From a virus (taxonomy: Duplodnaviria; Caudoviricetes): a stretch of DNA of 64,000 bases. Numbering within the stretch: position 1 is the first letter of the stretch; every line of letters begins with the position of its first letter. The translations under genes and the position numbers were made by a program. Under the pieces are notes generated by a model. It saw only the letters and a list, made by a program, of their open reading frames with translations, had not been told where the DNA came from and made no database searches. The stretch covers positions 1-64,000 of the IMG/VR virus record IMGVR_UViG_3300014205_000212. One strand, written 5' to 3'. Shown here piece after piece: positions 15,952-34,476 of the stretch.

Positions 15952-16107
15952 CCTGCCGTTTTAGATGAGATCATTGAATACATTGAAGATACTGAACAAA
16001 CCATTGATGGTGAATGGGGTTCGTGTAGAGACTTGAAAGAGTTGATTAGAGATAAACAAATGCCTGAATTATATGATAAGTTAATTGCTTTGAGAAATGG
16101 CAGGTAA
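15898..16107 (+). CDS. Cassette hypothetical protein (starts in the B3 loop; stop is the TAA of TAAC)
   Basis: 69 aa, MKAQDNKKEKATDVYTLLPAVLDE... Confidence 0.7.
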   Translation: MKAQDNKKEKATDVYTLLPAVLDEIIEYIEDTEQTIDGEWGSCRDLKELIRDKQMPELYDKLIALRNGR

Positions 16108-16141
16108 CTCACTTATATATACAGTTCAAAATATTGAAGTA
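16105..16141 (-). other. attI-like array-terminal site T1
   Basis: + strand TAACTCACTTATATATACAGTTCAAAATATTGAAGTA; homologous to T2 and T3. Confidence 0.7.
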
Positions 16142-16392
16142 TGCCAAAACTAATAGAATCGGTAGATATAAAAAATAGAATAATAGAACTGATTAATAAT
16201 AATAATTTATTTATTAATGATGAACTTCAAATTTTTGAAGCACTTATTAATAAATATAAACCTATATCCATTTCTAATTGTTCTAATCTTTTAGGAAAAA
16301 AATATAACTCTATAAAGTATATGGTTAACCATAATTCTTTACCTTTTATTTCTATTAATAATAGTAAACATATTTTAAAATCTTTAATATAA
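16141..16392 (+). CDS. Small HTH protein (excisionase/MerR-like HTH suspected)
   Basis: ISISNCSNLLGKKYNSIKYMVNHNSLPFISINNSKHIL. Confidence 0.5.
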   Translation: MPKLIESVDIKNRIIELINNNNLFINDELQIFEALINKYKPISISNCSNLLGKKYNSIKYMVNHNSLPFISINNSKHILKSLI

Positions 16393-16396
16393 TTAT

Positions 16397-16858
16397 ATGG
16401 AAATTTTAAATTTAATTTTGATAGGAGTAATATCAAGTGGTATTACTCTTATGTATCAAAGAGGATTTTTTCCGGGAATGATATTTCATTCTTGGTTTAG
16501 ATGGTTAATAATGACAAAGTATGAAATATTAGCTAAAATATTAGGCAAATGTCATTATTGTAATGGATTCTGGATAAATATTATTATAACCTTTTTATTT
16601 ACTCATAACTGGCTTTATTTCATCATAACTTCAGGTTCTTGGTATTTATGTACAGTTATCGTTTCTAATGTAATAGAATGTATTTATGTGCCAATAATAT
16701 ATAAATCAGCCTTAGATTGGTGGAACAGTTTAAATATATTCGAAAAAAGTAATTTAACTGAAAAATATAAAATTAATGTTCCTGATAATGGATTAAAAGG
16801 AATAAATCAATATATAATACAAGGAATAGCAAATAAAGAAAAAATATTAATAAAATAA
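16397..16858 (+). CDS. Membrane protein, DUF1360-like
   Basis: Hydrophobic helices and LGKCHYCNGFW. Confidence 0.55.
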   Translation: MEILNLILIGVISSGITLMYQRGFFPGMIFHSWFRWLIMTKYEILAKILGKCHYCNGFWINIIITFLFTHNWLYFIITSGSWYLCTVIVSNVIECIYVPIIYKSALDWWNSLNIFEKSNLTEKYKINVPDNGLKGINQYIIQGIANKEKILIK

Positions 16859-16877
16859 TAATATAATTAATTTAATT

Positions 16878-17159
16878 ATGAATTACGAAGAATATTTACA
16901 AAAAGGGAAAGAACTCGAATCAGAATTTGAGAATAAGAAAACAGAATTAATGAAAGAATTTGTAAAGGCAAATAATCCTTATAAAATTGGTGACAAAATA
17001 ACAGACCATATTGGCTCAATAATTATTGAAAAAATGGGGTTTGCGTGGGGTTTCGGTAATAAGCCATGTGCCACATATACAGGTTTAGAACTTAAAAAAG
17101 ATGGCACTCCAACTAAAAAAGAATCACGTAGACAAGTGTGGCAGTCAAATATTGTCTAA
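16878..17159 (+). CDS. Hypothetical protein, probable eroded cassette gene
   Basis: 93 aa; stop is the TAA of TAAC at site C0. Confidence 0.7.
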   Translation: MNYEEYLQKGKELESEFENKKTELMKEFVKANNPYKIGDKITDHIGSIIIEKMGFAWGFGNKPCATYTGLELKKDGTPTKKESRRQVWQSNIV

Positions 17160-17168
17160 CATATGTTA
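17157..17168 (+). repeat. Collapsed attC-like site C0
   Basis: TAAC-ATAT-GTTA: both boxes present with the interior deleted, followed by CCGCCAG like other body starts. Confidence 0.6.
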
Positions 17169-17207
17169 CCGCCAGTTTTTATTTATTAATCTTAATATCA
17201 AAACTAT

Positions 17208-17813
17208 ATGAAATCATGGAAAGAACCTACAAAAGAAAGATGGGGAATGGATTATCGTCCCGGAATTACAGAAGAATTTTCACAACTAATTAAATTAGCT
17301 AAAGAAAAGATTGAGCCATTTTCATATAAAGAAATTTCAAGATATACTTATTACTTTAAAGTAAAAGGTGAGGAAATTTCGAGTGAATTTGATTGCTGCG
17401 ATGATGAAAAATGTATCAAAGAAGCCAAAAAAGCTATAAGAAAACAATACGGGAAAAATACGCATATTGAAGAATGTTATTCGGATAATGACGAAGACCA
17501 TGAGAGTATTGAAATATGTAGTATTTGTGGAAAACCTATGAATGAATATCTTACTTGGTGTAATTCAGAATTAGAGTACTTAGAAGAAAATAAACCTTGG
17601 GACGCTCAATTTTTAGCTGATGAAGGTTTTGTAATTGGCGTTATTTTAGATAGTACTCCAACTATGGATTGTAATATTTCAGATTATGCAAAATATCAAA
17701 AAGGCGAAACACTTCAAAAGGCATTACAATCAAGAGAAGAATTTTTTCAAAGAATCGGTAAATTAGCTCAATCAGTAATTGATGCAGACTTCGCTGTCTT
17801 AAATGGACGGTAA
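17208..17813 (+). CDS. Cassette hypothetical protein (acidic, Cys motifs)
   Basis: 201 aa; stop is the TAA of TAAC. Confidence 0.8.
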   Translation: MKSWKEPTKERWGMDYRPGITEEFSQLIKLAKEKIEPFSYKEISRYTYYFKVKGEEISSEFDCCDDEKCIKEAKKAIRKQYGKNTHIEECYSDNDEDHESIEICSICGKPMNEYLTWCNSELEYLEENKPWDAQFLADEGFVIGVILDSTPTMDCNISDYAKYQKGETLQKALQSREEFFQRIGKLAQSVIDADFAVLNGR

Positions 17814-17934
17814 CGGTGAAGCTATGACCAGTAAAGGAATGCGGGCTTCGTGCCTGTCAAAATAGTAGAAACTTAATAGAAAATACAAAATGAAAATTAA
17901 CGCAGAAACCCCCAATTGCATAAACATATTGTTA
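17811..17934 (+). repeat. Chimeric attC-like site C1 (124 bp)
   Basis: Left arm shares 21 identical bp with B2; right arm CCCCCAATTGCATAAACATATTGTTA is not its complement. Confidence 0.75.
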
Positions 17935-18360
17935 TATGCTGCTTTTTCTTCTATTCCATTAGATATTGAAGGTTCAAATTTAGAAAATACTGGTTGGATT
18001 CCTTCCGAAAATGATAAAAAGTATATGGATGGAAAAAACTATTTACTTGCTATTGAAGAAGCTAATTCCAAAAATGCTAAAGTAATATTTAAAAATGTAT
18101 CTCTACAATGGGATAGTTGTGATTGCGGAGATTATTATGGTTGTTCGCATGGGAATTATGTTTATGATATTGACATAATAAATGAAAATAAAAAAATTAA
18201 CATAGAATATACCGATGGAGATTCTCTGGAATTTTATAACAATGGGAAGTCCTGTAAGATTCCAACAGCAGGAGCAACTATTTTTGATTTTATAAGAATG
18301 TGTCAAATTTGTGAAATTGAATTAGAGCTAACAGATTACGCAGAAACTCTTTTAAAGTAG
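17890..18360 (+). CDS. Cassette hypothetical protein (starts in the C1 loop)
   Basis: 156 aa, MKINAETPNCINILLYAA... Confidence 0.75.
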   Translation: MKINAETPNCINILLYAAFSSIPLDIEGSNLENTGWIPSENDKKYMDGKNYLLAIEEANSKNAKVIFKNVSLQWDSCDCGDYYGCSHGNYVYDIDIINENKKINIEYTDGDSLEFYNNGKSCKIPTAGATIFDFIRMCQICEIELELTDYAETLLK

Positions 18361-18393
18361 CATATAATTTATTTATATGTGCATAAAAAGTAA

Positions 18394-18401
18394 TACTTTT
18401 G
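18394..18401 (+). promoter_or_regulatory. Bacteroidota -7 promoter element
   Basis: TACTTTTG(CA) matches TAnnTTTG; no clear -33 TTTG. Confidence 0.4.
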
Positions 18402-18599
18402 CATACTAATCAATTGAAATATAGACTATTAAATAAAAGCATTAAATTAAGTAAAAACGAGTTGCATTACTTATATATTTTGAAATTTAAATACAAAATG
18501 AAAGTTAATCAATTTATCCGTGATGCTATCATCGAAAAATTAAAAAAAGATGTTCCAGTAATAAGAATAAATTTTAATAAAGAATATGAACCATTCTAA
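18399..18599 (+). CDS. Ribbon-helix-helix-like DNA-binding protein (start uncertain)
   Basis: KSIKLSKNELHYLYILK...KVNQFIRDAIIEKLKK. Confidence 0.5.
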   Translation: MHTNQLKYRLLNKSIKLSKNELHYLYILKFKYKMKVNQFIRDAIIEKLKKDVPVIRINFNKEYEPF

Positions 18600-18609
18600 C
18601 TTATACTAA

Positions 18610-18999
18610 ATGATAATAAAGATATGTTTAATAATATTATTTATTATGTGTAGTCTTTCTATTACTCATAATATGATAGTGTCTATTTATCCTGTTTATT
18701 TAAGTTTTAATGTTACTGTAACTATATATAATGCAGAATCAAATCAATGTGATGATACACCTCTTATTACAGCTTCTAATGATAAAATAAATGAAAATTC
18801 TATAAATTGGATAGCTTTATCTAGAGATTTAAAAAAAAATTGTAGATTTGATGATACAATAGAACTATTTATAAATGGTAGGTATAAAAAATATATAGTT
18901 AAAGACTTAATGAATAAGAGATGGACAAATAGAGTTGACATCTTAATTCATACTAAAAAACACTTTAAAGTAACTTCAGTTTTATATATAAAATTATAA
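18610..18999 (+). CDS. 3D-domain (double-psi barrel) putative lytic transglycosylase with N-terminal anchor
   Basis: VTVTIYN...QCDDTPLITAS...IALSRDL...VKDLMNKRWTNRVDIL. Confidence 0.75.
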   Translation: MIIKICLIILFIMCSLSITHNMIVSIYPVYLSFNVTVTIYNAESNQCDDTPLITASNDKINENSINWIALSRDLKKNCRFDDTIELFINGRYKKYIVKDLMNKRWTNRVDILIHTKKHFKVTSVLYIKL

Positions 19000-19180
19000 T
19001 TATGGAAACGTGGAAGATAATAACAATAATAATAGTAGTATCTATTATCTTTATTTTATGCTTTATGAAAGGTAAAAAAAGAGATGAAGAAGATTGATAT
19101 GATAATAACTTTATTTTTTTTAATAATATGTCTAATTATATTAGGCTTATATGCTAATGGAATATTAATAAATTAAAATT

Positions 19181-19381
19181 ATGGCATTAAATAAAATTAC
19201 GACAAAACCATCTAAACATAAGTTTTTTTATGTTGTTTTTAATATAAATGGAGATGTTATTGGAATAGCAGATTCTTTTGGTAAAGGATTATCTATTTAT
19301 GAACAACGGTATAATAATACACCTTCAGATTCTAGAAATAATATAATACCTTTTGAAATAAATAAATTTTATTATAAATAA
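19181..19381 (+). CDS. Hypothetical protein
   Basis: 66-aa ORF. Confidence 0.55.
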   Translation: MALNKITTKPSKHKFFYVVFNINGDVIGIADSFGKGLSIYEQRYNNTPSDSRNNIIPFEINKFYYK

Positions 19382-19540
19382 TAATTATGGTAATTAAATT
19401 ATTAGGAATATTATTTGTTATTATTTCTATATATATGATAAGTATTAGAATAAATTATAATGATTGGTTTGATACAATAGGATGGGTGTGTTCTTTTTTT
19501 TGGTGTGTTAATTCTACATTTTTACATAAATCTTAAAACA

Positions 19541-19843
19541 ATGAATTTTAATAGCTCAATTAGATGTATTTTACAAAAAGATAAAATAACACATCCTTTA
19601 TTTCCTAAAGAAATAAAATATATATATTTAAATAACAATAATTTAGTTAATTCTTTAGGAGAACAAATTAATATTAGTGATTATATATTTAATGATGATA
19701 ATTATCATATATATTATTCTGAAATACTAACTAAAGAAGATGAAATATTATTAGTAGCAGTATTTTGGGAATTATTTCGAATAAATTCTAAATATATAGA
19801 TAAATATACTAATTTAATTGATAAATTAAGAATTAAAAATTAA
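19541..19843 (+). CDS. Hypothetical protein
   Basis: 100 aa from ATG 19541. Confidence 0.6.
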   Translation: MNFNSSIRCILQKDKITHPLFPKEIKYIYLNNNNLVNSLGEQINISDYIFNDDNYHIYYSEILTKEDEILLVAVFWELFRINSKYIDKYTNLIDKLRIKN

Positions 19844-19847
19844 AATT

Positions 19848-20060
19848 ATGGTAACAGGAATATTAGATGAAGACTATCTCAATGAAGAGAGATTAAAGGA
19901 TCACATTAAAGAATTAGAAGAATATGATAAGATAAGAGAGGAAAGAAATAATGCTTTAGAATTATATTGTGTAGAATGTGATAAATATATTCCAAAAGAA
20001 AAAGTTATATGGAGAAATGATACTCCTTATTGTGAATGTGGTAATATATTAGAATTATGA
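19848..20060 (+). CDS. Small zinc-ribbon protein
   Basis: CVEC...CECG. Confidence 0.65.
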   Translation: MVTGILDEDYLNEERLKDHIKELEEYDKIREERNNALELYCVECDKYIPKEKVIWRNDTPYCECGNILEL

Positions 20061-20464
20061 TAGAAGAAGAAGCATTAGAAGAAATAATAAAGTTAGCAAA
20101 TGGTACATCAGACCCTGCTACAATAAAGGCTTATTATAAACAACAATTCTTTAATGGAAAGAAGATGCTATTTGATGGTACTATCATTACAGCACTACTT
20201 ATATTAGAAAAATACAAGGCTTACACAGATTATTGGGATTCTTCATTTGGAAATAAAAATCCTCAATATATAAAATCTGTAGATAAAAAAATGTCTATTT
20301 CTGATTTCTTAGTAAAAGGAGAATATAATAAAACATTTATTCTTCCGGCAAGAAATAGAGATATATATCTATTTGGTACTAATAGTCTTAATGAACTTAA
20401 AGTAAAATTAATTAATTTTAATAAAAGACTTAATGAAAGAAAGAACACTTCCCGAGGGAACTAA
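20057..20464 (+). CDS. Hypothetical protein upstream of the helicase
   Basis: 135-aa ORF overlapping both neighbours. Confidence 0.7.
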   Translation: MIEEEALEEIIKLANGTSDPATIKAYYKQQFFNGKKMLFDGTIITALLILEKYKAYTDYWDSSFGNKNPQYIKSVDKKMSISDFLVKGEYNKTFILPARNRDIYLFGTNSLNELKVKLINFNKRLNERKNTSRGN

Positions 20465-21815
20465 AATACCACCTCATGATTTAAGAATAGAAGAAACTAT
20501 ATTAGGTCAGTTAATGATAGAAGTAAATAAAAATACTATTAATGCTATTAGCATCATTAATGAAGATGATTTTTATAAAGAATCACATAAATTAATTTAT
20601 AGAACAATATCTTTATTATATAAACGAGATAATGTTTGTAATTTCATTATTGTATGTCATGAATTAATGAAGATTCAAGCATTAGAAATAGTAGGTGGTA
20701 GTTATATTATAAGTACTTTATCTTCTAATGTATCTTCTACTTTAAATGTTATTTATCATGCAAGAATTCTTAAACAGTTATCAATTGCTAGAAAATTAAT
20801 TGCTATTTCATATAATGTTCAAACTTCTGTATATGAAATGAAAGATGTAAAAGAGATAATAGATACTTTAAATAAAGACATTAATAATATCTATAAAGAT
20901 GTTGATAAAGAAGATTCTATTGTCTTAGCTTCTAAAGTATCTGATGAATTAATGAAAGATTTATTAAATGATAATTTTGTATTAAATAAAAAGAATACAG
21001 GATTTAAAATTTTAGATAAAATAATTGGTATTACATTAAATAAAATATTATTAGTTGCTGGTCCTGCAAAACATGGGAAAAGTAAGTTTATAAGTATGAT
21101 AATGATGAATATTTTAGAAAAATATTCTGATGTAAGTATATTTTGGATTACATTAGAAGATTCTGCTAAAGATATCATTGCCGGTTATATTGCTTCTAAA
21201 ATTTTAATTACTCCTAAAGACATCATTGAAAGAACATATTCTAAAGACTGTAATTCTATTATTAAACCTCATATAGAGAAGTTTAAAACCTTTGATATAG
21301 AATTCCAAGAAAAAAGTGCTAAAGTGTCTCAATTTGGCATTAAATTCATTGAATTCTGTAAAATGCGAAAAGGAAGATTTAATATTTTAATAATTGATAA
21401 TATGCTTTCATTATCTGATAAAGATGATTTTAAAGGTAATGATAATGGAATGTATGATTATATTATGCTTCAGTTATTAAATATTAAACAAAGGACTAAT
21501 GCTTTAATAATTCCTATTCATCATTATAGAGATGCTCAACAAGCAGAAGGAAAGATAGAAAGTGCATATAGACCAAGATTAATAGACATGAAAGGAACAG
21601 AAGCTTTTAGAAGAGTTCCTAATCAAGTATTACTATTAAATAATCCGGGAAAATATAAAGATTTAGTTATAGAATATAAAGGTCATAAAGACTTACTAAA
21701 GAGTATCTTTATATGTGATACTGGTGCTAATAGGAATGCTTCCGATGATGATGATAGTGCTTTAATAAGATTCTTTCACACACTAGAATTTAATATTTTT
21801 GAAGAAATAAATTAA
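20433..21815 (+). CDS. dnaB: DnaB-like replicative helicase
   Basis: N-terminal PPHDLRIEETILGQLM...EDDFYKESHKLIY, Walker A AGPAKHGKS, LIIDN, RPRLIDMKGT. Confidence 0.9.
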   Translation: MKERTLPEGTKIPPHDLRIEETILGQLMIEVNKNTINAISIINEDDFYKESHKLIYRTISLLYKRDNVCNFIIVCHELMKIQALEIVGGSYIISTLSSNVSSTLNVIYHARILKQLSIARKLIAISYNVQTSVYEMKDVKEIIDTLNKDINNIYKDVDKEDSIVLASKVSDELMKDLLNDNFVLNKKNTGFKILDKIIGITLNKILLVAGPAKHGKSKFISMIMMNILEKYSDVSIFWITLEDSAKDIIAGYIASKILITPKDIIERTYSKDCNSIIKPHIEKFKTFDIEFQEKSAKVSQFGIKFIEFCKMRKGRFNILIIDNMLSLSDKDDFKGNDNGMYDYIMLQLLNIKQRTNALIIPIHHYRDAQQAEGKIESAYRPRLIDMKGTEAFRRVPNQVLLLNNPGKYKDLVIEYKGHKDLLKSIFICDTGANRNASDDDDSALIRFFHTLEFNIFEEIN

Positions 21816-21839
21816 CGGTGAGCGTATGAAATCGTGTTA
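21813..21839 (+). repeat. Collapsed attC-like site D0 (27 bp)
   Basis: TAACGGTGAGCGTATGAAATC-GT-GTTA: left arm start joined to the last bases of a right arm. Confidence 0.7.
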
Positions 21840-21882
21840 GTTGCAGCCTTTTATTTAGTAATTAATTTTTAAAAACAAAAAT

Positions 21883-22230
21883 ATGAAAGTAACATTAAAC
21901 ATTGAAAACGATGCCGAAATGAGAGCATACGTTAAAGATTGCATTAAAGGACAAGTATTGTCAATTGTTCGTGAAGAAATGCAAGAAATGATTAAAGAAG
22001 AGTTGAACCGAAAAATAAAAGGGTTGAACGATTCCAATTTTCAGCGGATATTTACAGATGCGATGGTGAAGAATGTAAAAGACATTTTACAAGCAAATCA
22101 CAATGTGAAAAGCTGGGATAATAATTGGATTAAACCTATTATAGCTTCTTTAATGGAGCAATATGTAAAGCAAAACGAATCGTTAATTAATCAACTTGCA
22201 AAAGAGAAGGTTAAGTTGCTGGTTGGTTAG
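21883..22230 (+). CDS. Cassette hypothetical protein
   Basis: 115 aa filling body 21836-22242. Confidence 0.75.
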   Translation: MKVTLNIENDAEMRAYVKDCIKGQVLSIVREEMQEMIKEELNRKIKGLNDSNFQRIFTDAMVKNVKDILQANHNVKSWDNNWIKPIIASLMEQYVKQNESLINQLAKEKVKLLVG

Positions 22231-22238
22231 GTTGCAAC

Positions 22239-22444
22239 TAACGGCTGCGGGTGTGACATCGGTTTTTTTGCGGATTAACAACTAAAATTTAAAAATATGG
22301 TACAGATAGTAGAACAGACAAAGGAAGAAAAAATGGCAATGTATATGAAATTGTCTAAGAAGCAAATAGCAGAAATGCTTATTAATTGCAATAACATTAT
22401 AACAGCACTAACGCAAGCAAAAAACTGTGTTATACCTGCTGTTA
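22239..22444 (+). repeat. attC-like hairpin D1 (206 bp; loop encodes ~40 codons)
   Basis: GCGGGTGTGACATCGGTTTTTT/AAAAAACTGTGTTATACCTGC; 4 G.T. Confidence 0.85.
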
Positions 22445-22542
22445 TGGGTGAGTTAACTTGCGATAGTTGCGGTTGCCATCCAAATACAATATATCAAACA
22501 AGCAAGGGTCGGTTTTGTGAACGGTGCAATCCAGCAAGTTAA
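22297..22542 (+). CDS. Cassette zinc-finger-like protein (starts in the D1 loop)
   Basis: 81 aa; CDSC...CERC. Confidence 0.7.
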   Translation: MVQIVEQTKEEKMAMYMKLSKKQIAEMLINCNNIITALTQAKNCVIPAVMGELTCDSCGCHPNTIYQTSKGRFCERCNPAS

Positions 22543-22549
22543 TTACCCA

Positions 22550-22671
22550 TAATGGCTGCGGGTTTGAAATGTAAGGGATTTCAGAACGCTTCCGTATCAC
22601 ACGAGATAAATTAACTTAGTAGTAACCAGCTTTACAACAGATAAAACCCTTATATTTTAAACCCGTTGTTA
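22550..22671 (+). repeat. attC-like hairpin D2 (122 bp; TAAT variant)
   Basis: CGGGTTTGAAATGTAAGGG/CCCTTATATTTTAAACCCG; 2 G.T. Confidence 0.88.
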
Positions 22672-22689
22672 GGCACAGTACGGTAAATT

Positions 22690-22854
22690 ATGATACAATA
22701 TAAAACGAAGCAATTAATTCAAGTTCCTTGTAAAAATAAACTTACAGGTAGCATTGAAACATTTGAGATAATGGCTTATGATTTTTCAGATGCTAAAAAG
22801 GAACTTGAATGGGTTTTAGATTTACGATGGATAATTGGTTATGGTTCAATGTAG
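22690..22854 (+). CDS. Cassette hypothetical protein (54 aa)
   Basis: Below the track cut-off; MIQYKTKQLIQVPCKNK...GYGSM; fills body 22668-22867. Confidence 0.65.
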   Translation: MIQYKTKQLIQVPCKNKLTGSIETFEIMAYDFSDAKKELEWVLDLRWIIGYGSM

Positions 22855-22863
22855 TATTGTGCC

Positions 22864-22988
22864 TAACGGTTCGTGTATGACCCGTTTGGGATTAAATAGT
22901 ACAAACTTTCAAAATGGAACAAATGAATATAAATGACTTAGACTTTCAGCAAACTACCGAACCCCAAATGGGTTATGACACGGTGTTA
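22864..22988 (+). repeat. attC-like hairpin D3 (125 bp) containing a start codon
   Basis: CGTGTATGACCCGTTTGGG/CCCAAATGGGTTATGACACG; one bulged G on the 3' arm. Confidence 0.88.
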
Positions 22989-23156
22989 TCGGCAGGTATT
23001 TGTGATACTTGTTCTATTCCTAAAATGATGAATACAGGCGATGGTATAAATGAACCATCTGACCCTATTCTTTATTGTCATAAAATGAAACGTGAAATAT
23101 GTCCAGAACCACCAGAGGATAGGATGGTCGAATGTCGGTTTTATACTTGCCGATAA
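22914..23156 (+). CDS. Cassette Cys-rich protein (starts in the D3 loop; stop is the TAA of TAAC)
   Basis: 80 aa; CDTC...C...C...C. Confidence 0.7.
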   Translation: MEQMNINDLDFQQTTEPQMGYDTVLSAGICDTCSIPKMMNTGDGINEPSDPILYCHKMKREICPEPPEDRMVECRFYTCR

Positions 23157-23190
23157 CTCGTTTATATGTATAGTTCAAAAAAATGAAGTA
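23154..23190 (-). other. attI-like array-terminal site T2
   Basis: + strand TAACTCGTTTATATGTATAGTTCAAAAAAATGAAGTA; partial inverted partner at 23242-23258. Confidence 0.75.
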
Positions 23191-23302
23191 GTCTATATAT
23201 TAAATAGTTATATGTTTTATTGTATTCATTTTATATAATTATACTTCAATTTATTGAAATAATAGTAAATTAATAAATAATAGTAAACTAATAAATAATA
23301 AA

Positions 23303-23671: not shown

Positions 23672-23689
23672 TAACTAATAAATAATAAT

Positions 23690-25813: not shown

Positions 25814-25824
25814 ATAAATAAATT

Positions 25825-26106: not shown

Positions 26107-26108
26107 AT

Positions 26109-27170: not shown

Positions 27171-27187
27171 TTAAATAAATAAAAATT

Positions 27188-28018: not shown

Positions 28019-28031
28019 GTTATTTAACTTT

Positions 28032-28068
28032 TAGAGGAATATCTTTAATAAGGTATTCCTCTATTTAA
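28032..28068 (+). terminator. Putative intrinsic terminator
   Basis: TAGAGGAATA/TATTCCTCTA stem. Confidence 0.6.
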
Positions 28069-28080
28069 TAAATTAAAATT

Positions 28081-28338
28081 ATGCCTACAAGTATATTCAT
28101 AGAAAGTTTAACTAAAAGAAATATTTTAGTTAAAAACGGTAGAGAAGATTTAATATTTCATGTTGGTTCAAGTTCTAAAAATACACATAAATTTATTTCT
28201 ATATCTATTAAAGAAAAAATAATTGGAAACAATAAACATTTCTATTTTTATTTAGATGGAATATTAAAAAAAGAATCAGTTTGGGAATGTAAAAATAATA
28301 GAGCAACAATTCATATAATAGATATAAATCATGTATAA
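28081..28338 (+). CDS. Hypothetical protein
   Basis: 85 aa in a run of overlapping small ORFs. Confidence 0.6.
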   Translation: MPTSIFIESLTKRNILVKNGREDLIFHVGSSSKNTHKFISISIKEKIIGNNKHFYFYLDGILKKESVWECKNNRATIHIIDINHV

Positions 28339-28534
28339 AAGATTTGCAATAATTGACGATTATGGAACAATACATTCTAGTACCGAAGAAGAAATGAGAT
28401 TAGCAATTACTGCCATGACAGATTCTGATTCTTTAGTAGGCACTAAAAGTGATATATTAAAATTAAAAGCTAAATATTATTCTCCTTGGGTTGGAGATTT
28501 AAAATTAGTAGAAATTCATAAATTATATAAATAA
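28331..28534 (+). CDS. Hypothetical protein
   Basis: 67 aa, coupled to neighbours. Confidence 0.6.
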   Translation: MYKRFAIIDDYGTIHSSTEEEMRLAITAMTDSDSLVGTKSDILKLKAKYYSPWVGDLKLVEIHKLYK

Positions 28535-28737
28535 TGAAAAAAAGAATAACTAAAGAAGATAATAATACATTAGATAATGTAGAAAAGCCACTTTGGAAAG
28601 ATATAGATGGGAAACCTGTATTGCCTATGAATCATAAAAAGATTTGTGCTAATGCTACTTGGGATTACATTATTGTCTATTTTGATCTTAAAAAATCTCC
28701 TGAAGTATTTAATATTTCTAAACCTAAAAATAAATGA
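28534..28737 (+). CDS. Hypothetical protein
   Basis: 67 aa, TAATG coupling. Confidence 0.6.
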   Translation: MKKRITKEDNNTLDNVEKPLWKDIDGKPVLPMNHKKICANATWDYIIVYFDLKKSPEVFNISKPKNK

Positions 28738-28976
28738 AAACATTTTATTATACAAGAAATCAAAAAGAAGGACATAGTGGATATATAGTTACATTAGAAA
28801 TTTATAAAATAGAGAAAAAAATACCATATCATTTATGTTCTCACACTTTTAATACTGCATCTACAAGAGGAGAAGAATCAGAAGTATTTAATGGATTAGC
28901 AAAAAATGGTTTTCTTCCAAAGAAATATCAAGATAAGTATGCTAGAGAAATTCCACATAAAGCTTATAGATTATGA
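28734..28976 (+). CDS. Hypothetical protein
   Basis: 80 aa, ATGA coupling. Confidence 0.6.
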   Translation: MKTFYYTRNQKEGHSGYIVTLEIYKIEKKIPYHLCSHTFNTASTRGEESEVFNGLAKNGFLPKKYQDKYAREIPHKAYRL

Positions 28977-29221
28977 AATATTACAATAATAAAGGAGCAT
29001 TAGTAGATAGTCATAATGGAGATGCATTATTTATATTAATAGAATTAGAAAATAATTCTTTTATGTCAGTAGAATATAGTTCTGAAGATTATCCTTCGAC
29101 AACAATATTATTCTATAAAAATTTAAAAGAAGTAAAAGAATCATTAAAAAATAATCCGGAATGGATATTAAATGGTATTAAAAATATAAAATTAAAGAAA
29201 TGGTTAAAATCAATCCAGTAG
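28973..29221 (+). CDS. Hypothetical protein
   Basis: 82 aa, ATGA coupling. Confidence 0.6.
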   Translation: MKYYNNKGALVDSHNGDALFILIELENNSFMSVEYSSEDYPSTTILFYKNLKEVKESLKNNPEWILNGIKNIKLKKWLKSIQ

Positions 29222-29418
29222 AAGTTGCAAGTGTATTAGCTACAAATGCAACTTTTGATGAAGTAAAAGTTAATCCTGCAAATAATGTACAGGAAGAAGA
29301 TGATATGTATGAAGAAATAAGTAAAAATGAATATAGATTTAAAGGTATTTTTCAAAATATATTTAATATTCATTATGATTATTATTATAATATTTTAATT
29401 GCCCATAATTATGAATAA
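29200..29418 (+). CDS. Hypothetical protein
   Basis: 72 aa. Confidence 0.6.
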   Translation: MVKINPVEVASVLATNATFDEVKVNPANNVQEEDDMYEEISKNEYRFKGIFQNIFNIHYDYYYNILIAHNYE

Positions 29419-29501
29419 TTCTAAATTTTAAATAGTAATTAATTGTATAGAATAAATATCTTATTTTAAAAGAATTGTTTGTTTAATTAAATAATTGTCA
29501 T

Positions 29502-30122
29502 ATGAAAATGTTAAAAGAAATAGCTGAAAATTATTCAGCACTAAATTACAACTCTGATAACTATTTTATAGGAGGAGGTTTAGATGGCTCAAAATTCGCT
29601 TCTAATCGGCACGAGGATGCACGTAATGATTCAGGAAAGCTTACACTTGGGGAATTAACTGCACTTCTCAAGAAGGTCACAAAAATAGACATAGATGTTA
29701 TAAAGTCTGTAATTAATTACGCAGTGCCTAACATGGAATGGCATCATGCCGGGAAATTGCCAAAACAATACGGTGGAGGCATGAAGAAGACATATTTTTT
29801 AAATGCAAAAGAAATTTGTGATATTGCAACTAATTTCGAAGATTATAAAAATAAAGTTGAAATTGCAATTGTTACTAAAAAGGCTGAGGCAGAGGCACAA
29901 AATACATTAGTCCAACGTCAATTAGACTACCTTAAAGGAAATGCCACTAAATTTAGCAGAGTGTCAAATTTACCTCAATTTTACACAATTACTGAAAGCG
30001 AAATGAACGGTAAATATGGGTGGTTTGATGCTTCCGGAAAGTCGTATAGTTTACCGATATATTACTCCGGTTGGGAATTTAAAAATCAAGAAGATTTAAA
30101 TAACTATCACTTAATTCGTTAA
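29502..30122 (+). CDS. Hypothetical protein (GC-richer than flanks)
   Basis: 206-aa ORF with EWHHAG motif. Confidence 0.75.
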   Translation: MKMLKEIAENYSALNYNSDNYFIGGGLDGSKFASNRHEDARNDSGKLTLGELTALLKKVTKIDIDVIKSVINYAVPNMEWHHAGKLPKQYGGGMKKTYFLNAKEICDIATNFEDYKNKVEIAIVTKKAEAEAQNTLVQRQLDYLKGNATKFSRVSNLPQFYTITESEMNGKYGWFDASGKSYSLPIYYSGWEFKNQEDLNNYHLIR

Positions 30123-30283
30123 TATGAAAGTTACTGTGACTTATATCAAAGTAATCAAGAAAGTTATAAAAGCGAAAGACAACGCAGAACTTTTAATACT
30201 TATTGATGAAAAGTGCCCTAAAGGTTATATTTTACAAAAATTTTAATTTTATAATTTAGTAATAATTTTTAAAACGAAATAAA

Positions 30284-30724
30284 ATGAAAAATACTATTGA
30301 TAAATTAAAATTGAAAAAATATCATTCTAAAATAATAAAAGCTAAAATAATAACTAGTAAAAATGCATACGATTATATTAGACAGTTTTACTTTGATGAT
30401 ATAGATATTTATGAAAGTGTTTTTATATTACTCATAGATGCCTCTAATACAACAATAGGATATGCTAAAATAAGTCAAGGAGGAGTTATAGGAACAGTTA
30501 TAGATGTTAAGTTAATATGTAAATATGTTATAGATAGTTTAGCGATGGGAGTTATATTAGCTCATAACCATCCTACAGGTAACCTTAAAGCAAGTGATTC
30601 TGATATGCAAATAACATCTAAAGTAAAAGATGCTTTAAATATCTTTGATTGTAAATTATTAGATCATATTATACTTAGTTCTAATAAATATTTATCCATG
30701 GCAGATGAAGGAATTTTAATTTAA
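30284..30724 (+). CDS. RadC-like JAB/MPN domain protein
   Basis: ESVFILL...ISQGGVIGTVID...AHNHPTG...SDSD...LLDHII. Confidence 0.9.
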   Translation: MKNTIDKLKLKKYHSKIIKAKIITSKNAYDYIRQFYFDDIDIYESVFILLIDASNTTIGYAKISQGGVIGTVIDVKLICKYVIDSLAMGVILAHNHPTGNLKASDSDMQITSKVKDALNIFDCKLLDHIILSSNKYLSMADEGILI

Positions 30725-30730
30725 AATATT

Positions 30731-30958
30731 ATGAAAAATAAATATGTTTATTATATAATGGAAACTGATATATGGCAATCAAATTATTCAGAAACTCTAT
30801 TTGGTATTTATGATGATTATGATATAACTTTTAAAGAGTTTAATAAATTATCAGAATTTTATAATAAAGAAAATATTAATGGAGATATTATTATGTATTA
30901 TACTATTATAAATCAAAAACATGAATCTATAAAAATTATGTCTAAATCTGGTAATTAA
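30731..30958 (+). CDS. Hypothetical protein
   Basis: 75 aa. Confidence 0.6.
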   Translation: MKNKYVYYIMETDIWQSNYSETLFGIYDDYDITFKEFNKLSEFYNKENINGDIIMYYTIINQKHESIKIMSKSGN

Positions 30959-31188
30959 TGAATAAAGAAGAAAAAGAATTATTTATAAATAATTTTATAA
31001 ATAGTATAAAAGAAGATTTATTATCTAAATTAGATTCTATTCCTGAAAATTGGGATGGATTTGAATTAAGACATTATATTAATATTAAATTCGAACAAGA
31101 AAATTTATGGAAAAGAAAAATATTAAGTAATACAGATAAAATAAGAAAACAAAGATGTCTTAATGATATTTATAATAATGGGTTGTAG
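30958..31188 (+). CDS. Hypothetical protein
   Basis: 76 aa, TAATG coupling. Confidence 0.6.
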   Translation: MNKEEKELFINNFINSIKEDLLSKLDSIPENWDGFELRHYINIKFEQENLWKRKILSNTDKIRKQRCLNDIYNNGL

Positions 31189-31393
31189 TGTATTAAATTG
31201 GAGTAGGGAGTTACATAATAAAAAAGTAACTCCTGACCGTAATGATGGTAAAATAACAGTTAAAATACCAAATGGATATATCACATTTTCCACTGAAGAA
31301 GAAAAACAAGATTGGCTTAAAAGATATTTAAATAAACAAATTGTTGAAAATAAACCTTTAAAATTTAATCGTTATAAAAAAAGAAATAAATGA
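31163..31393 (+). CDS. Hypothetical protein (start uncertain)
   Basis: 76 aa. Confidence 0.5.
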   Translation: MIFIIMGCSVLNWSRELHNKKVTPDRNDGKITVKIPNGYITFSTEEEKQDWLKRYLNKQIVENKPLKFNRYKKRNK

Positions 31394-31815
31394 AAGCAGA
31401 AGAATATAAAGACATTTTAAATCATTATATGTATCGTTTTAAATTAGAACATACAGATGAATATCATAATTATATAAAATTAAAATATTTCTATACAAAA
31501 AATTCAGAAATTACAGTAGATAATATTATAAAACTTGTATGTGAAGGAGAGAAAGTAGATATAGAAGATATGAAAAGAACCGGAAGAAATAGAAATTTAA
31601 ATATTCAACCTAGACAAATAGCTTCTTATCTTATTACTAAACACATTAAAGGACTTACATTAGAATCAATAGGTAAAGCTTTAAGAAATGAACCTTTAGA
31701 TCATGCAACAGTTATTCATGCTAATAAAACTATTAATAATCTTATAGATACAGATAAGAGAATGAAAAATAAATTAATTCATTATGAAGACATCATTAAA
31801 GCTTGGAAAGAATGA
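31390..31815 (+). CDS. Protein with DnaA C-terminal (domain IV) HTH
   Basis: RQIASYL...TLESIGKAL...DHATVIHANKTI matches the DnaA domain IV signature. Confidence 0.8.
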   Translation: MKAEEYKDILNHYMYRFKLEHTDEYHNYIKLKYFYTKNSEITVDNIIKLVCEGEKVDIEDMKRTGRNRNLNIQPRQIASYLITKHIKGLTLESIGKALRNEPLDHATVIHANKTINNLIDTDKRMKNKLIHYEDIIKAWKE

Positions 31816-32468
31816 CAGAGATAGAAAAGTTCTTTAAAGATACATATGTTAGAAATACACCTATAATAGAATATCTAAGAGAAGCTACAAGAAATAAATT
31901 AGCATATTTTATTCCTCTTAATACACCATCATTAAAAAATAGTAAACAGATACAACAGATATTTACTAAGAATTCTACTTGCTGTCATTCTAGAGGTGGA
32001 TTGGTTATTAAAACATCTACAGGAGGATTAATTTGTTCTCATTGTCAACAACCTTGTGGAAGACATACAAGACCTATTTTAAATGCTTCAGATGGCGTAC
32101 AGGAATATGAAAAAAATATATTACCTTTTGTAAATGTCTTTAAAGGTATATTTAAAGAATGGAAAGTAGGAAAGACAGAACCTTTAGTTATGTGTTTTTA
32201 TTTTATAAGAAACCAATATAGAGATTTTGATTATGGAAACGCTTCTGAGGTACTTTTAGATATGTTTAAAGACCAAACTGATAAGAAGACTAAAGAAGTT
32301 ATACCGAGATTAATTACTGATGATTGTATGCGTTTTGTAAAACCTTTCTTTCTAGGTTGTCATTATTCACAAGATAAACCTGGTACTATCATTACTTTAC
32401 TTACAAAAGAACTACTTGAAATATATAGTAAAGTATATTTAGATTATAAACCTAATACATTATTCTAA
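31803..32468 (+). CDS. RusA-like Holliday junction resolvase with a zinc-ribbon insertion
   Basis: IPLNTPSLKNSK, FYFIR...DFDYGN...DM...ITDD; inserted CC...CSHC. Confidence 0.6.
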   Translation: MERMTEIEKFFKDTYVRNTPIIEYLREATRNKLAYFIPLNTPSLKNSKQIQQIFTKNSTCCHSRGGLVIKTSTGGLICSHCQQPCGRHTRPILNASDGVQEYEKNILPFVNVFKGIFKEWKVGKTEPLVMCFYFIRNQYRDFDYGNASEVLLDMFKDQTDKKTKEVIPRLITDDCMRFVKPFFLGCHYSQDKPGTIITLLTKELLEIYSKVYLDYKPNTLF

Positions 32469-32740
32469 TGAAAACATATAAACCAATAACTAAAAAAATA
32501 ATAATAGATATATTAACCGATGTAGAACATTATAATCAAAGTCCATTAAATTTAATAATTAATGGATATAATATTGATGAAAATATCACTTGTAGAAAAA
32601 TATGTGTTAAAAAAGGTAGAATAGAATATTTCTATTATAAAGATTCTCCTGAAAGTATGGAAAGATTTAAAATGTTACTTAACCAAATATTAAATAGAAA
32701 TGAAAAAAGTAAGTATAGTAATAGTATCAAGAATGTATAA
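32468..32740 (+). CDS. Hypothetical protein
   Basis: 90 aa. Confidence 0.6.
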   Translation: MKTYKPITKKIIIDILTDVEHYNQSPLNLIINGYNIDENITCRKICVKKGRIEYFYYKDSPESMERFKMLLNQILNRNEKSKYSNSIKNV

Positions 32741-32888
32741 TGTAATACATGAAGATGATTTATCTGAAACAGGAATATTAAGATTAGCAGAAAACAACTT
32801 TGATAATGAAATTAACCTATTAACTTCTAATTTAGAAGATGGTGATTTTGCTTATGAAATAAAAAGTACTAACGATTATAAAGTTTGA
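32700..32888 (+). CDS. Hypothetical protein
   Basis: 62 aa. Confidence 0.55.
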   Translation: MKKVSIVIVSRMYNVIHEDDLSETGILRLAENNFDNEINLLTSNLEDGDFAYEIKSTNDYKV

Positions 32889-32889
32889 T

Positions 32890-33225
32890 ATGGAACAGTC
32901 ATTTATAGAAAAAAGAATTGCAAGTAAAGCAACTGAAAGAGTAGATAAAGATTATAGAGAATTTATAGATTTTTGTAATAAAAATCCTTTTGCTAAACAA
33001 ATACAAATTAAAGTAAATAATATAAATATTTTTTTAACTGGTAATAATTATAATAATCAAGAATTATTTTCTCCTCATAATACAAATAATAAAAATAATG
33101 ATTTTACCAACTATATAGATATATTCAATAAGCTTCAAAAAAAATATGAAAAAGAAGAAACAGAAATTTTACTTGATAAATTAGATAGTGTAAAATATTT
33201 ATTTGATAACTTAAATAACATATAA
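32890..33225 (+). CDS. Hypothetical protein
   Basis: 111 aa. Confidence 0.65.
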   Translation: MEQSFIEKRIASKATERVDKDYREFIDFCNKNPFAKQIQIKVNNINIFLTGNNYNNQELFSPHNTNNKNNDFTNYIDIFNKLQKKYEKEETEILLDKLDSVKYLFDNLNNI

Positions 33226-33230
33226 TTAAT

Positions 33231-33596
33231 ATGCAAAAACATACAGAAATATATTTAAATCATTTTCATCTTCATCAAGGAGAAGTTATAGTAAGTGAGA
33301 TATCCGGAACTACCAATGGTATAAACATTCATCATTTAGATTCTAAAAAGATGGGTGGTAGTGATACTAAAGATTATATAGAGAATCTATGTGCTATTAC
33401 CATTACAGAACATGAGTTATGCCATAGATATAAAGAATATAATGAATATGTAAAGAAGATACATGAATTATTCTTAACTATTAATCCTTATTCTTATCCT
33501 CATCTCTTTCTTGATAATACAATTTATAAAAAATATCAAAAAGATTTATATCAGATACTTAAAGAATGTGGACATTATAAAAAATATAGTAAATGA
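33231..33596 (+). CDS. HNH endonuclease-like protein
   Basis: NIHHLDSKKMGG...IENLCAITITEHELCH. Confidence 0.7.
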   Translation: MQKHTEIYLNHFHLHQGEVIVSEISGTTNGINIHHLDSKKMGGSDTKDYIENLCAITITEHELCHRYKEYNEYVKKIHELFLTINPYSYPHLFLDNTIYKKYQKDLYQILKECGHYKKYSK

Positions 33597-33611
33597 ATAT
33601 AGATAATAATG

Positions 33612-33739
33612 TAACGGCTGGCGGTATGCGGTCGTTGCCGAACTATCAAATTAGTAATAACTTAAATACGAGAACAAAATTATGAATACAGAAAAAAGTA
33701 TCAACGAAGCGGAAGGCAATGCCGTATTACCGCTTGTTA
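33612..33739 (+). repeat. attC-like hairpin E0 (128 bp) containing a start codon
   Basis: GCGGTATGCGGTCGTTGCC/GGCAATGCCGTATTACCGC; ATG at 33682. Confidence 0.85.
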
Positions 33740-34050
33740 CCACCCGTTTTTTATTGCTCAGTCTGAAATGGACTAACAAAAAAGATAAGTGGTTTACGTT
33801 TTGGCGTGAAAATTCAGCAGGGTATTGCTGGTTCAAAGAATGGTGTGGACTTTATGATATTGAAAAAGCAAGAGAAACGCACGGACACGACAATACTATT
33901 ATGGTTGATGGATTCCTTATTAAACACCTTTGGAAAGAAATTGAATACGAAGGTAAAAAACGTGAAATACTTCCAAATACGGAAGAGGTGCGTAAATTTT
34001 TATCTATTCAACTTCGAGATTTAAAAGCATTGCACCGCACTACTCATTAA
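33682..34050 (+). CDS. Cassette hypothetical protein (starts in the E0 loop)
   Basis: 122 aa, MNTEKSINEAEGNAVLPLVTTRF... Confidence 0.75.
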   Translation: MNTEKSINEAEGNAVLPLVTTRFLLLSLKWTNKKDKWFTFWRENSAGYCWFKEWCGLYDIEKARETHGHDNTIMVDGFLIKHLWKEIEYEGKKREILPNTEEVRKFLSIQLRDLKALHRTTH

Positions 34051-34058
34051 ATGGGTGG

Positions 34059-34148
34059 TAACGTTTTGCGTATATACGAGGTACGCCTTAACGATGAATT
34101 TTAAATTACAACAAACGCTTATAGGCGTATCTTGTATATACGCTGTTA
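34059..34148 (+). repeat. attC-like hairpin E1 (90 bp)
   Basis: GCGTATATACGAGGTACGCCT/AGGCGTATCTTGTATATACGC; 21-bp stem with 2 G.T. Confidence 0.9.
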
Positions 34149-34163
34149 GCACCAGTACGGATT

Positions 34164-34430
34164 ATGAGAACTGAACTAAATTTATATGATGACAAATTAA
34201 AACAAGCAATACTTGATTTGCCATACAATACAAAGATTGATGATAATGGTGTTGATTGCGATATGGTTTTCATCCCTGAAAGTGATTATGGATTTGCTGA
34301 AATATACAGAATGTACGATGATATTTTAGTTTTTTTAATCCCAACTTACGGAGGAACACCATCATTGCAATATCACGTTAGTAGACACGCTATTGATTAT
34401 CTGATTTCTGAATTGAAAAAGATAACGTAG
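34164..34430 (+). CDS. Cassette hypothetical protein
   Basis: 88 aa filling body 34145-34443. Confidence 0.75.
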   Translation: MRTELNLYDDKLKQAILDLPYNTKIDDNGVDCDMVFIPESDYGFAEIYRMYDDILVFLIPTYGGTPSLQYHVSRHAIDYLISELKKIT

Positions 34431-34439
34431 TATTGGTGC

Positions 34440-34476
34440 TAACTAGTTTATATATATAGTTCAAAAAAATGAAGTA
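34440..34476 (-). other. attI-like array-terminal site T3
   Basis: + strand TAACTAGTTTATATATATAGTTCAAAAAAATGAAGTA; perfect 21-bp inverted partner at 34536-34556. Confidence 0.75.

Follow-up and report, generated by a model that had tools for sequence, protein, structure and literature searches.

What kind of site closes the cassette arrays of this crAss-like phage, and could it be the place at which new cassettes enter? The window analyzed here, a 64,000-nucleotide stretch of a phage genome of about 92 kb, carries four arrays in which GC-richer ORF modules, bounded by GTTA+N6 and N6'+TAAC, are separated by imperfect hairpins (Table 1). Ten exact 10-mer end pairs occur in the arrays. Like attC sites and CALINs (attC clusters without an integrase), the imperfect hairpins have an inverse core RYYYAAC and a core GTTRRRY, and each cassette start is complementary to its own inverse core (for example, GCCTAAC/GTTAGGC). 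The ORFs start inside the hairpin loops. There is no gradient of GC content or decay along the arrays with distance from their closing sites, and no Rfam family matches.

The left boundaries of the arrays consist of variable backbone followed by TAAC and a 5' arm (backbone-TAA^C-5'arm, with ^ marking the junction), and the right boundaries always consist of a terminal site, T (N6'-TAA^C-T). Of 11 hairpins, 9 have the more stable fold on the + strand (in total, -176.8 versus -148.0 kcal/mol), which would put T at the folded strand's 3' end, the position of attI in the established model of canonical integrons. The longer hairpin arm is the 5' arm of the + strand, whereas the bottom strands of canonical attC sites have their extrahelical bases placed the opposite way.

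That TAAC, where T joins, is a real recombination breakpoint follows from a comparison of G000 15202-15833 with L028 5966-6597: the two are 91% identical, and homology stops exactly at GTTA and TAAC(GG). This shared module encodes an RNA ligase, and the interiors of its flanking hairpins differ, so that hairpin and gene do not travel as one cassette. More generally, ORF modules and hairpin interiors assort independently, with a loop motif, TAAC and GTTA as the three kinds of short conserved sequence at which shuffling occurs. One hairpin is chimeric, its parts meeting in the loop. The single-crossover mechanism of integrons predicts neither the independent assortment nor the loop-joined chimera.

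Table 1. Arrays, terminal sites and neighboring features in the window (^ marks an array boundary)
Feature	Position	Strand	Remarks
Array A	11932..16108	+	left boundary AAATAT^TACGGCTG; contains AT-rich block 13100-14085
Array A, last ORF module	15948..16108	+	GTTACCTGCC at 15948 ... GGCAGGTAAC at 16108
T1, type I terminal site	16105..16141	+	final base is the A of the next gene's ATG
83-aa gene directly after T1	16141..16392	+	orthologues follow a type I site in two other phages
Second TTCAAAnnnnTTGAAG-type palindrome	16223..16240	.	97 bp from T1 core, inside next gene; weak
Array C	16878..18368	+	leftmost unit without upstream hairpin; mini element TAAC-ATAT-GTTA at 17157-17169
Array C, last ORF module	17931..18368	+	GTTATATGCT ... 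AGCATATAAT
TC, type II terminal site	18365..18404	+	TAAT-TTA-TTTATATGTGCAT-AAAAAGTAATACTTTT-GCAT; type matches two sites in relative G002
Array B	21815..23157	+	the TAA in its first TAAC doubles as the DnaB stop codon
Array B, last ORF module	22985..23157	+	GTTATCGGCA at 22985 ... TGCCGATAAC at 23157
T2, type I terminal site	23154..23190	+	
Inverted weaker copy of T2 core palindrome	23242..23259	-	fold z -1.4
Array D	33608..34443	+	12 nt after HNH-like gene; array absent from syntenic relative G002
Array D, last ORF module	34145..34443	+	GTTAGCACCA at 34145 ... TGGTGCTAAC at 34443
T3, type I terminal site	34440..34476	+	
Inverted copy of T3 core	34536..34571	-	21-bp perfect inverted repeat with 34459-34479, 56 nt apart; fold z -3.0

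The first-pass annotation had described a conserved 37-nt site that closes three arrays, and this description is borne out. The pattern TTATATNTANAGTTCAAAANANTGAAGTA has exactly three matches, all on the + strand (16113-16141, 23162-23190 and 34448-34476), and no match in any of 100 dinucleotide shuffles. A repeat finder places T1, T2 and T3 in one family aligned over 57 nt, and each begins at the TAAC that closes the last cassette, whose ends are reverse-complementary 10-mers. A fourth site, at 18365, had been called degenerate. It does close array C, which ends in AGCATATAAT^TTATTTATATGTGC, but it belongs to a separate type (II): the pattern TTTATAT-n6-AAAAAGTAATACTTTT is common to TC and two array ends in the related phage G002. 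Since the ends of this last cassette match at 9 of 10 positions, the R box of array C is TAAT, not TAAC, and TC begins at that TAAT.

The information in these sites lies in their position and in a long conserved part, the box itself being low in information: [TC]AA[CT]-n3-5-TATAT[AG]T is found 14 times in the AT-rich source genome, with 18 matches expected. In type I, the long part is TAGTTCA-A6-TGAAGTA, with a second copy 69-97 bp downstream (for T1, the copy matches at about 15 of 18 positions by eye and lies outside the 3-mismatch scan); types II and III contain compact palindromes. Nor do the sites look like half of a hairpin. With position weight matrices from 28 3' arms and 22 5' arms, the score of T falls below the median of the background, and the TAT box of T is shifted by one position relative to the arms. 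As was claimed from the start, the sites are not hairpins: 45-nt segments on their own fold no better than shuffles (z -0.5 to -1.5), as expected of a double-stranded site like attI.

The fold results also bear on the idea that T is a signal, at the RNA level or for termination, at which transcription or processing of the array stops, in which case the + strand polarity of the G.T pairs would reflect RNA folding. The better folding of the + (coding) strand, the 21-bp stem that T3 forms with its inverted copy and the compact palindromes would agree with this idea. However, T alone does not fold, the long-range stems of T2 and T1 are not significant (z -1.4 and -1.2), no Rfam family matches, and T lacks a GC-rich stem followed by a T run; a terminator scan found no intrinsic terminator at T1, TC or T2, and neither GC stem nor T run is seen at T3 by eye. 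Ordinary intrinsic terminators occur elsewhere in the same phage (28019-28080 and 35822-35910). A termination signal is very improbable.

How general is the terminal site? Twelve are present in at least eight phage-like genomes (G000, G002, L007/L104, L105, L075, L079, L103 and L027); one is untyped, and the others form three sequence types (I-III). All 12 lie directly after a cassette end, at a terminal (T/C)AA(C/T), and conservation begins at that very nucleotide, matching the G^TT/AA^C junction of the R box at which attI is joined. Type I sites precede orthologous genes in three phages; the adjacent proteins are 36-38% identical and the upstream cassettes differ.

In other viral contigs, the junction adjoins a recombinase gene. 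Relatives of the recombinase found beside the array end of L027 are encoded in 54 IMG/VR contigs, and in 28 of them a 266-267-aa Xer/IntI-like tyrosine recombinase lies downstream of a junction N6'-TAAC-TAY-TATAT(G/A)TA. The recombinase ATG is 51-52 nt after the junction at these 28 loci (36-46 nt in subgroups). Cassette pairs are found upstream of the recombinase at 24 of 34 loci and downstream at none, and 51 array ORFs versus 5 are on the recombinase strand, so that cassette genes point toward the recombinase. In an integron, attI occupies this very position. The box in the window is 2 nt further from TAAC than in the recombinase-linked consensus, an n5 spacing common only to L137. The linked recombinases lack the IntI-specific additional domain: their matches to TIGR02249 come in two stretches, with the middle of the model left out, and score 117-164 bits (cut-off 265). 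Xer models (XerA_Arch, XerC and XerD) score best, all below their cut-offs, with XerA_Arch highest at 182-197 bits (cut-off 220).

Because the site closes every array and a matching site adjoins a recombinase elsewhere, it is probably the docking point for new cassettes. We consider it somewhat likelier than otherwise that T is an attI-like resident site. The earlier proposal of a non-hairpin insertion platform gains from the one-ended position at every array and from the recombinase link in the 28 contigs, but the source phage has no tyrosine recombinase (by six-frame search of the 74-kb record and precomputed Pfam for the remaining ~18 kb), its sites do not lie between an integrase gene and the first cassette, and terminal sites of any type without an array are absent from G000-G003 and from the collection scans. 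The search for empty sites in relatives that had been suggested thus came back empty-handed; by the same token, the sites do not occur independently of cassettes. Nor could strain-variable cassettes be located next to T: arrays A, C and B are 99.97% identical across four samples/assemblies, with no indel and no cassette difference. Any present-day activity is accordingly putative, and the arrays might be fossils. Since no strain differs in its cassettes, entry beside T is something that we infer.

The genes behind the sites suggest a different reading, in which T is a backbone promoter plus operator of the downstream genes, with palindromes bound by a small HTH protein (for example, the product of 16141-16392), and cassettes accumulate upstream at a tolerated spot or at an attG-like GWT/AAC beside AT-rich DNA. 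T1, G002-Ta and the L007 site directly abut the ATG of the gene that follows, and in L105, L075, L079 and L103 the ATG comes within 1-7 nt; type I sites are followed by orthologous small genes in different phages, and so are type III sites; the second palindrome copy at 3 of 3 type I sites recalls operator pairs; the minimal box is not rare in the source genome; and integron integrases can insert cassettes at GWT sites in genomes (bioRxiv 10.1101/2022.09.11.507474). The 83-aa protein has excisionase/HTH_17-like neighbors in the ESM Atlas (TM 0.5-0.6) and might conceivably be a winged-helix/excisionase-like DNA binder, but the model of its fold is of poor quality (pLDDT 60), and no PDB entry matches it with E below 0.3. 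Considering that the junction is at the same nucleotide in 12 of 12 sites, it is difficult to see how tolerated insertion, which would scatter, could be responsible. Moreover, no T-type copy occurs without an array, T2 and T3 precede unrelated genes, a homologous box precedes the recombinase gene in the 28 contigs, and no sigma-70-like or Bacteroidota-type promoter can be read in T (a scan gave no more sites than in shuffles, and no TAnnTTTG box is seen by eye). We regard a purely regulatory site as unlikely. The long type-specific part, with its palindromes, downstream inverted copy and adjacent excisionase-like gene, may have a regulatory role, which, by analogy, would not exclude the attI-like reading: attI1 has DR1/DR2 and also overlaps promoters.

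Perhaps, instead, T is simply the right end of a larger mobile block (an array plus T, sometimes with the genes behind) that moves between phages by homologous or illegitimate recombination at short conserved sequences, with no site-specific reaction at T. Such events have been proposed for the PeSL (promoter-early stem-loop) modules of T4-type phages, where small accessory genes lie between repeated stem-loops that promote shuffling, by homologous recombination between the repeated promoter and stem-loop sequences. The segments that contain T2 and T3 are missing from the syntenic relative G002 (e.g. 33597-36589), and T1 alone has orthologues in other phages at a matching place in the backbone; on these grounds, the earlier suggestion that the platform itself has spread is plausible. 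The occurrence of type III in the otherwise unrelated L075, L079 and L103, the shuffling at TAAC, GTTA and the loop motif, the lack of an empty T and the stability of the arrays between samples would also suit a mobile block. Against it, the cassette-specific 6-nt end complementarity beside a core consensus is the signature of a site-specific reaction on a folded strand, not of homologous exchange, and in many contigs a dedicated gene for a tyrosine recombinase lies at a constant distance of 51-52 nt from the junction. The left array boundaries are not conserved, so that a second end of the block cannot be defined. This explanation is accordingly quite improbable. PeSL modules share small accessory genes separated by repeated stem-loop elements with the arrays described here, but they lack cassette-specific end complementarity, the TAAC/GTTA core and a dedicated terminal site.

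How might an attI-like T work? T would be the double-stranded resident partner of an integron-like cassette system in Bacteroidota phages, the mobile DNA being ORF modules (GTTA+N6/N6'+TAAC) separated by imperfect hairpins that read TAAC...GTTA. The + (coding) strand would fold, and a tyrosine recombinase would cut the TAA^C found at the hairpin's 5' foot. The left edge of T has a TAA^C of its own, and exchange between the two would bring the new unit (hairpin plus ORF) directly beside T and would give the observed boundaries, backbone-TAA^C-hairpin ... ORF-N6'-TAA^C-T. The core site would be the box common to all types, TAAC-n3-5-TATAT(G/A)TA, with the long type-specific part as an accessory or regulatory binding site, as in attI1. 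Because the source phage lacks a recombinase gene, its platforms would have to be served in trans, by the 266-267-aa enzyme of a co-resident phage or prophage. We tentatively suggest, at somewhat less than even chances, the broader view that Bacteroidota phages have an integron-like system (a recombinase without the insert, a TAAC-n3-5-TATATRTA site, hairpins of the coding strand and genes that point toward the recombinase), and that virulent crAss-like phages have recombinase-less docking copies filled in trans during co-infection or in lysogens.

The usual view of integrons is of bacterial platforms, with IntI and attI as their defining parts, and, to our knowledge, reports from phages have so far concerned borrowed integron fragments or attC clusters without an integrase. 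The present case differs in that a conserved terminal site closes every array in a crAss-like phage and that, in dozens of other viral contigs, the junction adjoins a small Xer-like recombinase. Should the site work in this way, the cassette-capturing family would be wider than IntI, and small accessory genes, probably with defense and counter-defense genes among them, would be exchanged by lytic phages of a dominant phylum; if filling occurs in trans, a lytic phage would gain a shared, exchangeable pool of such genes. A 267-aa enzyme would then form a simple testable pair with a ~40-bp site and a ~115-nt hairpin.

Like the attI of integrons, T is not a hairpin, is fixed at one array end, is joined through the AAC/GTT of its R box, has a variable cassette side and a conserved far side, and, in relatives, lies between array and tyrosine recombinase gene. 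Unlike attI, it has long type-specific palindromic extensions and no sequence likeness to any attI compared; the linked recombinase lacks the IntI-specific insert, the cassette genes point toward the site, not away, and a single virulent-type phage genome without a recombinase contains four sites, of two types. There is a precedent for an attI at an integrase-less array: in prophage M16-3, an array that has no recombinase begins with a Shewanella-type attI (Qi et al. 2023, PMC9892861). The same authors reported CALINs in virulent phages, such as Polaribacter phage P12002L, that likewise are attC-like hairpin arrays in lytic phages, one with a Flavobacteriaceae host, and have no integrase; that report does not mention crAss-like or Bacteroidetes phages and appears to describe a conserved terminal site only for the Shewanella prophage. 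Four arrays per genome, ORF starts in hairpin loops and independent assortment of ORFs and hairpins set the present arrays apart from those CALINs. The attG secondary sites of integron integrases, double-stranded non-att targets with a minimal GWT (Loot et al., bioRxiv 10.1101/2022.09.11.507474), resemble T in having GWT at the cut, as the minus strand of T reads G^TTA, but attG sites are many and unrelated, whereas T is a conserved family reused between and within genomes. The likeness to Xer/dif is limited to the best-scoring models of the linked recombinase: T has no 11-6-11 dif-like core, and its partner sites are folded hairpins with integron-type cores.

A final observation concerns the ends of the contigs themselves. 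Five recombinase-linked contigs start exactly at the TAAC of the junction, about 12 end within 200 nt upstream, and L104 starts 8 nt inside T; this clustering fits heterogeneity next to the terminal site.

The three type I terminal sites, T1, T2 and T3, which close arrays A, B and D, are real: the site pattern matches each of them (see table) and gave 0 matches in shuffles. The conserved stretch runs from the TAAC at the first base of each site to GAAGTA and ends within a few bases on either side. Each terminal TAAC closes an ORF module (cassette) that opens with 10 bases (GTTA+N6) reverse-complementary to its final 10. The first-pass annotation had placed a degenerate fourth copy at the end of array C. 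The same closing rule does apply there, with TAAT replacing TAAC, but the continuation is a different one, TTTATATGTGCAT-AAAAAGTAATACTTTT, and we treat this site (TC) as type II. The further proposal that T shares the spacing of the hairpin arms had to be abandoned, because hairpin-arm position weight matrices (PWMs) give T a score under the background median and the TAT box of T is offset, lying at +6 as against +7 in 3' arms and +10 in 5' arms. On the PWM result, the reading of T as a hairpin-arm copy was likewise rejected. The minimal box is not rare in the window genome.

The long part of type I sites, TAGTTCA-A6-TGAAGTA, has a second, inverted copy 69-97 bp downstream; at T3 the two copies pair without mismatch over a 21-bp stem (z -3.0), and at T2 and T1 the stem is weak. 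Compact palindromes are present in type II sites and in type III, a class found in relatives. One reading considered for the stretch from T3 to its inverted copy was an invertible promoter. Rfam gave no match. For the gene after T1, the ESM Atlas returns excisionase/HTH_17-like neighbours at TM 0.5-0.6; the fold model of its 83-aa product is poor (pLDDT 60), with no significant PDB match. Taken together, the palindromes or inverted copies and the neighbours of this gene point to a DNA-binding protein acting at T, be it an accessory factor or a regulator.

Within the arrays, ORF modules alternate with imperfect hairpins, mostly of 114-118 nt, with the layout TAAC-GG...TATG...stem...loop...stem...TATA...GTTA and with R boxes that match the integron inverse-core and core consensus (e.g. 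GCCTAAC/GTTAGGC). The GC content of the modules is 0.25-0.40, compared with 0.22-0.25 in the backbone. At the left boundaries, backbone is followed by TAAC and a 5' arm, for example between AAAT and TAACGGTGAG behind the DnaB stop codon, or between TAATG and TAACGGCTGG, while the right boundaries are always N6'-TAAC and then T. This asymmetry is what circular units would leave on inserting by exchange at TAA|C into a resident TAA|C-T. IS200/IS605-type single-strand transposition, a model prompted by units that abut a tetranucleotide, was set aside because the cassette-specific N6/N6' complementarity fits circular cassettes better. In the canonical integron, the folded strand is cut in the 5' R box, and attI lies at the 3' end of that strand. 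The + strand is the better folder in 9 of the 11 hairpins here, and T occupies the 3' end of the better-folding strand, as attI does in the integron model. A gradient of GC or of hairpin decay with distance from T was sought and not found. Two different ORF modules, one in array A and one in array B, begin with the same 11 bases, GTTAGGCACAG.

Where do the exchanges that build these arrays break the DNA? The RNA-ligase ORF module of the window is 91% identical to its counterpart in L028, a contig binned in a Lutibacter MAG; homology starts at GTTA and stops at TAAC(GG), and the flanking hairpin interiors are unrelated on both sides. TAAC is thus a true breakpoint. Since homology stops at GTTA/TAAC, T stands at an R-box breakpoint where a hairpin interior would otherwise be. 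Hairpin interiors, in turn, are shared between genomes separately from ORF modules, a departure from integrons, in which attC travels with its gene. One window hairpin is chimeric: its 5' half matches one L028 hairpin at 94% identity, its 3' half a second one at 82%, and the halves meet in the loop at the motif CAAAATAGTAGAA. A 20-mer of one hairpin, run against bacterial genomes, gave two real matches (L028 and a second contig, L027) and two chance matches in Syntrophus genes. The RNA ligase gene is also found in Cellulophaga phage phi10:1 (68% nt identity), whose genes are packed without hairpin-sized spacers.

Syntenic relatives were reached through DnaB homologues. One of them, G002 (26% GC), carries two arrays, both closed by type II sites; the compared genomes G001 and G003 have neither arrays nor T. 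The array end of contig L007 reads TAAC-TAAC-TTATTGGAACGC-TTCAAAAAC...ATG, and the gene that follows is an orthologue of the one after T1 (E 3e-16); a third orthologue, in L105, is preceded by CCGCTAAC-TTAC-TTATATGTTTAC-TTCAAAAATATGAA. The type III site, TATAAAC-n-CA-GTTTAAAAnTTnAAAC, is common to L075, L079 and L103 and lies directly 3' of the cassette end in each. In total, at least 8 genomes hold 12 terminal sites, all of which (12/12) lie behind a cassette. No orphan copy of T turned up in the window phage, G001-G003 or the collection scans, and no empty site in the relatives or those scans. Megablast against GenBank phages gave no close relatives, and single-protein scans of IMG/VR gave no relatives. 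The type I pattern produced only chance matches in IMG/VR and JGI metagenomes, in coding or unrelated AT-rich DNA, and a search of IMG/VR with the type II pattern yielded nothing beyond chance matches and G002 itself. In the relatives L075 and L076, the replication genes are followed by PRTRC_E, Prok_Ub, Prok-E2 and ThiF genes, which form a ubiquitin-like conjugation set.

The phage is also found in two sequencing runs, from landfill and groundwater. No cassette difference between strains was seen among contigs of these runs and one ENA assembly; at 99.97% identity, the ENA strain shows no indel in arrays A, C and B. Places where unitigs break or join within the arrays are indistinguishable from the contribution of other genomes with shared modules.

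The window phage encodes no tyrosine recombinase. In L027, a Prolixibacteraceae MAG contig, the array ends in TAAC-AAC-TATATGTAC about 50 nt before an Xer-like recombinase gene, which has an in-frame stop. This recombinase has 54 relatives in IMG/VR viral contigs (L106-L159). At 28 loci a variable N6' and TAAC are followed by a conserved TAY-TATAT(G/A)TA, with the recombinase ATG 51-52 nt on (36-46 in subgroups). Of 34 loci, 24 have cassette end pairs upstream of the recombinase gene and none has them downstream, and 51 array ORFs are on the recombinase strand versus 5 on the opposite one. Read in reverse, these loci have the integron layout of recombinase, site and array. Five recombinase contigs start exactly at the junction TAAC and about 12 end <200 nt upstream of it, which is what assemblers do where co-existing genomes differ next to a conserved site. 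The enzymes, of 266-267 aa, stay under the cut-offs of both the Xer and the IntI models; they align with the IntI model in two stretches that skip its middle. They make up a family of Xer/IntI-like tyrosine recombinases, of which a 267-aa example is encoded at L111:4001-4801. The window T sites have this box as well, at a spacing from TAAC that is 2 nt longer than in the consensus of the recombinase-linked sites; one such site, in L137, has the window spacing. Another recombinase contig, L135, and one copy of the window phage share a JGI sample. No canonical IntI scored above cut-off in two Bacteroidota MAGs, and of 15 generic homologues of the L027 recombinase detected across 400 Bacteroidia genomes, none lies beside arrays.

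Full-text literature searches turned up no account of this system with its linked recombinase, and none of crAss-like phages with such arrays. Clusters of attC that lack an integrase do occur in virulent phages, a Polaribacter phage among them, and a Shewanella prophage has an integrase-less attC array headed by its own attI (PMC9892861); GWT genome sites are also usable by integron integrases (10.1101/2022.09.11.507474). The early transcripts of phi14:2 have no common upstream motif (10.1101/2020.03.07.982082). T is, we think, probably an attI-like docking site that is served in trans. It may double as a regulatory site.

Locations of sites, genes and repeats (window positions unless a contig is named)
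Feature	Position	Remark
T1	16105-16141	pattern match 16113-16141
T2	23154-23190	pattern match 23162-23190
T3	34440-34476	pattern match 34448-34476
TC	18365	end of array C
Gene after T1	16141-16392	
RNA-ligase ORF module	15202-15833	L028 5966-6597
Chimeric hairpin	17814-17930	
Modules sharing 11 bases	12756; 22668	arrays A; B
+ strand module	~6.5-36.6 kb	
DnaB	20433-21815	
5514-aa ORF	45963-62507	
Tandem array	9388-10035	within ORF 9236-10048
Non-coding stretches	6932-8716	
Inverted repeat	7826-8063	at both ends
Terminators	28019-28080; 35822-35910	
Segment missing from G002	33597-36589	
Glycosyltransferase-like gene	35911-36603	
Ubiquitin-like set	L075 10564-13680; L076 14672-15999	
Recombinase locus, example	L111:736-4801	

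The IMG/VR record is 74,106 bp long, and the same phage is present in two metagenome contigs, one of 90.9 and one of 92.5 kb, the extra part of which encodes Crass_capsid (PF23898) and CrAss_Ring proteins; the window therefore belongs to a crAss-like phage of ~92 kb. The window has a GC content of ~26%. The minus strand module contains the 5514-aa ORF, which presumably encodes the giant RNA-polymerase-like virion protein known from crAss-like phages and is far longer than its phi14:2 counterpart. The + strand module has many small genes, DnaB and an AAA_23 ATPase. At its head are long, GC-richer non-coding stretches, which include a long inverted repeat; ARAGORN finds no tRNA in them, and they are reminiscent of intergenic regions that are highly transcribed in phi14:2. 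One ORF contains ~19 tandem copies of a 24-nt unit, whose number varies between strains and gives products of 270 or 214 aa. The segment missing from G002 comprises array D, T3 and five genes, among them the glycosyltransferase-like gene; in G002 the minus-strand module lies directly 3' of an HNH-like gene. Two intrinsic terminators are of the ordinary kind (GC stem and T run), and the second of them closes the + strand module.
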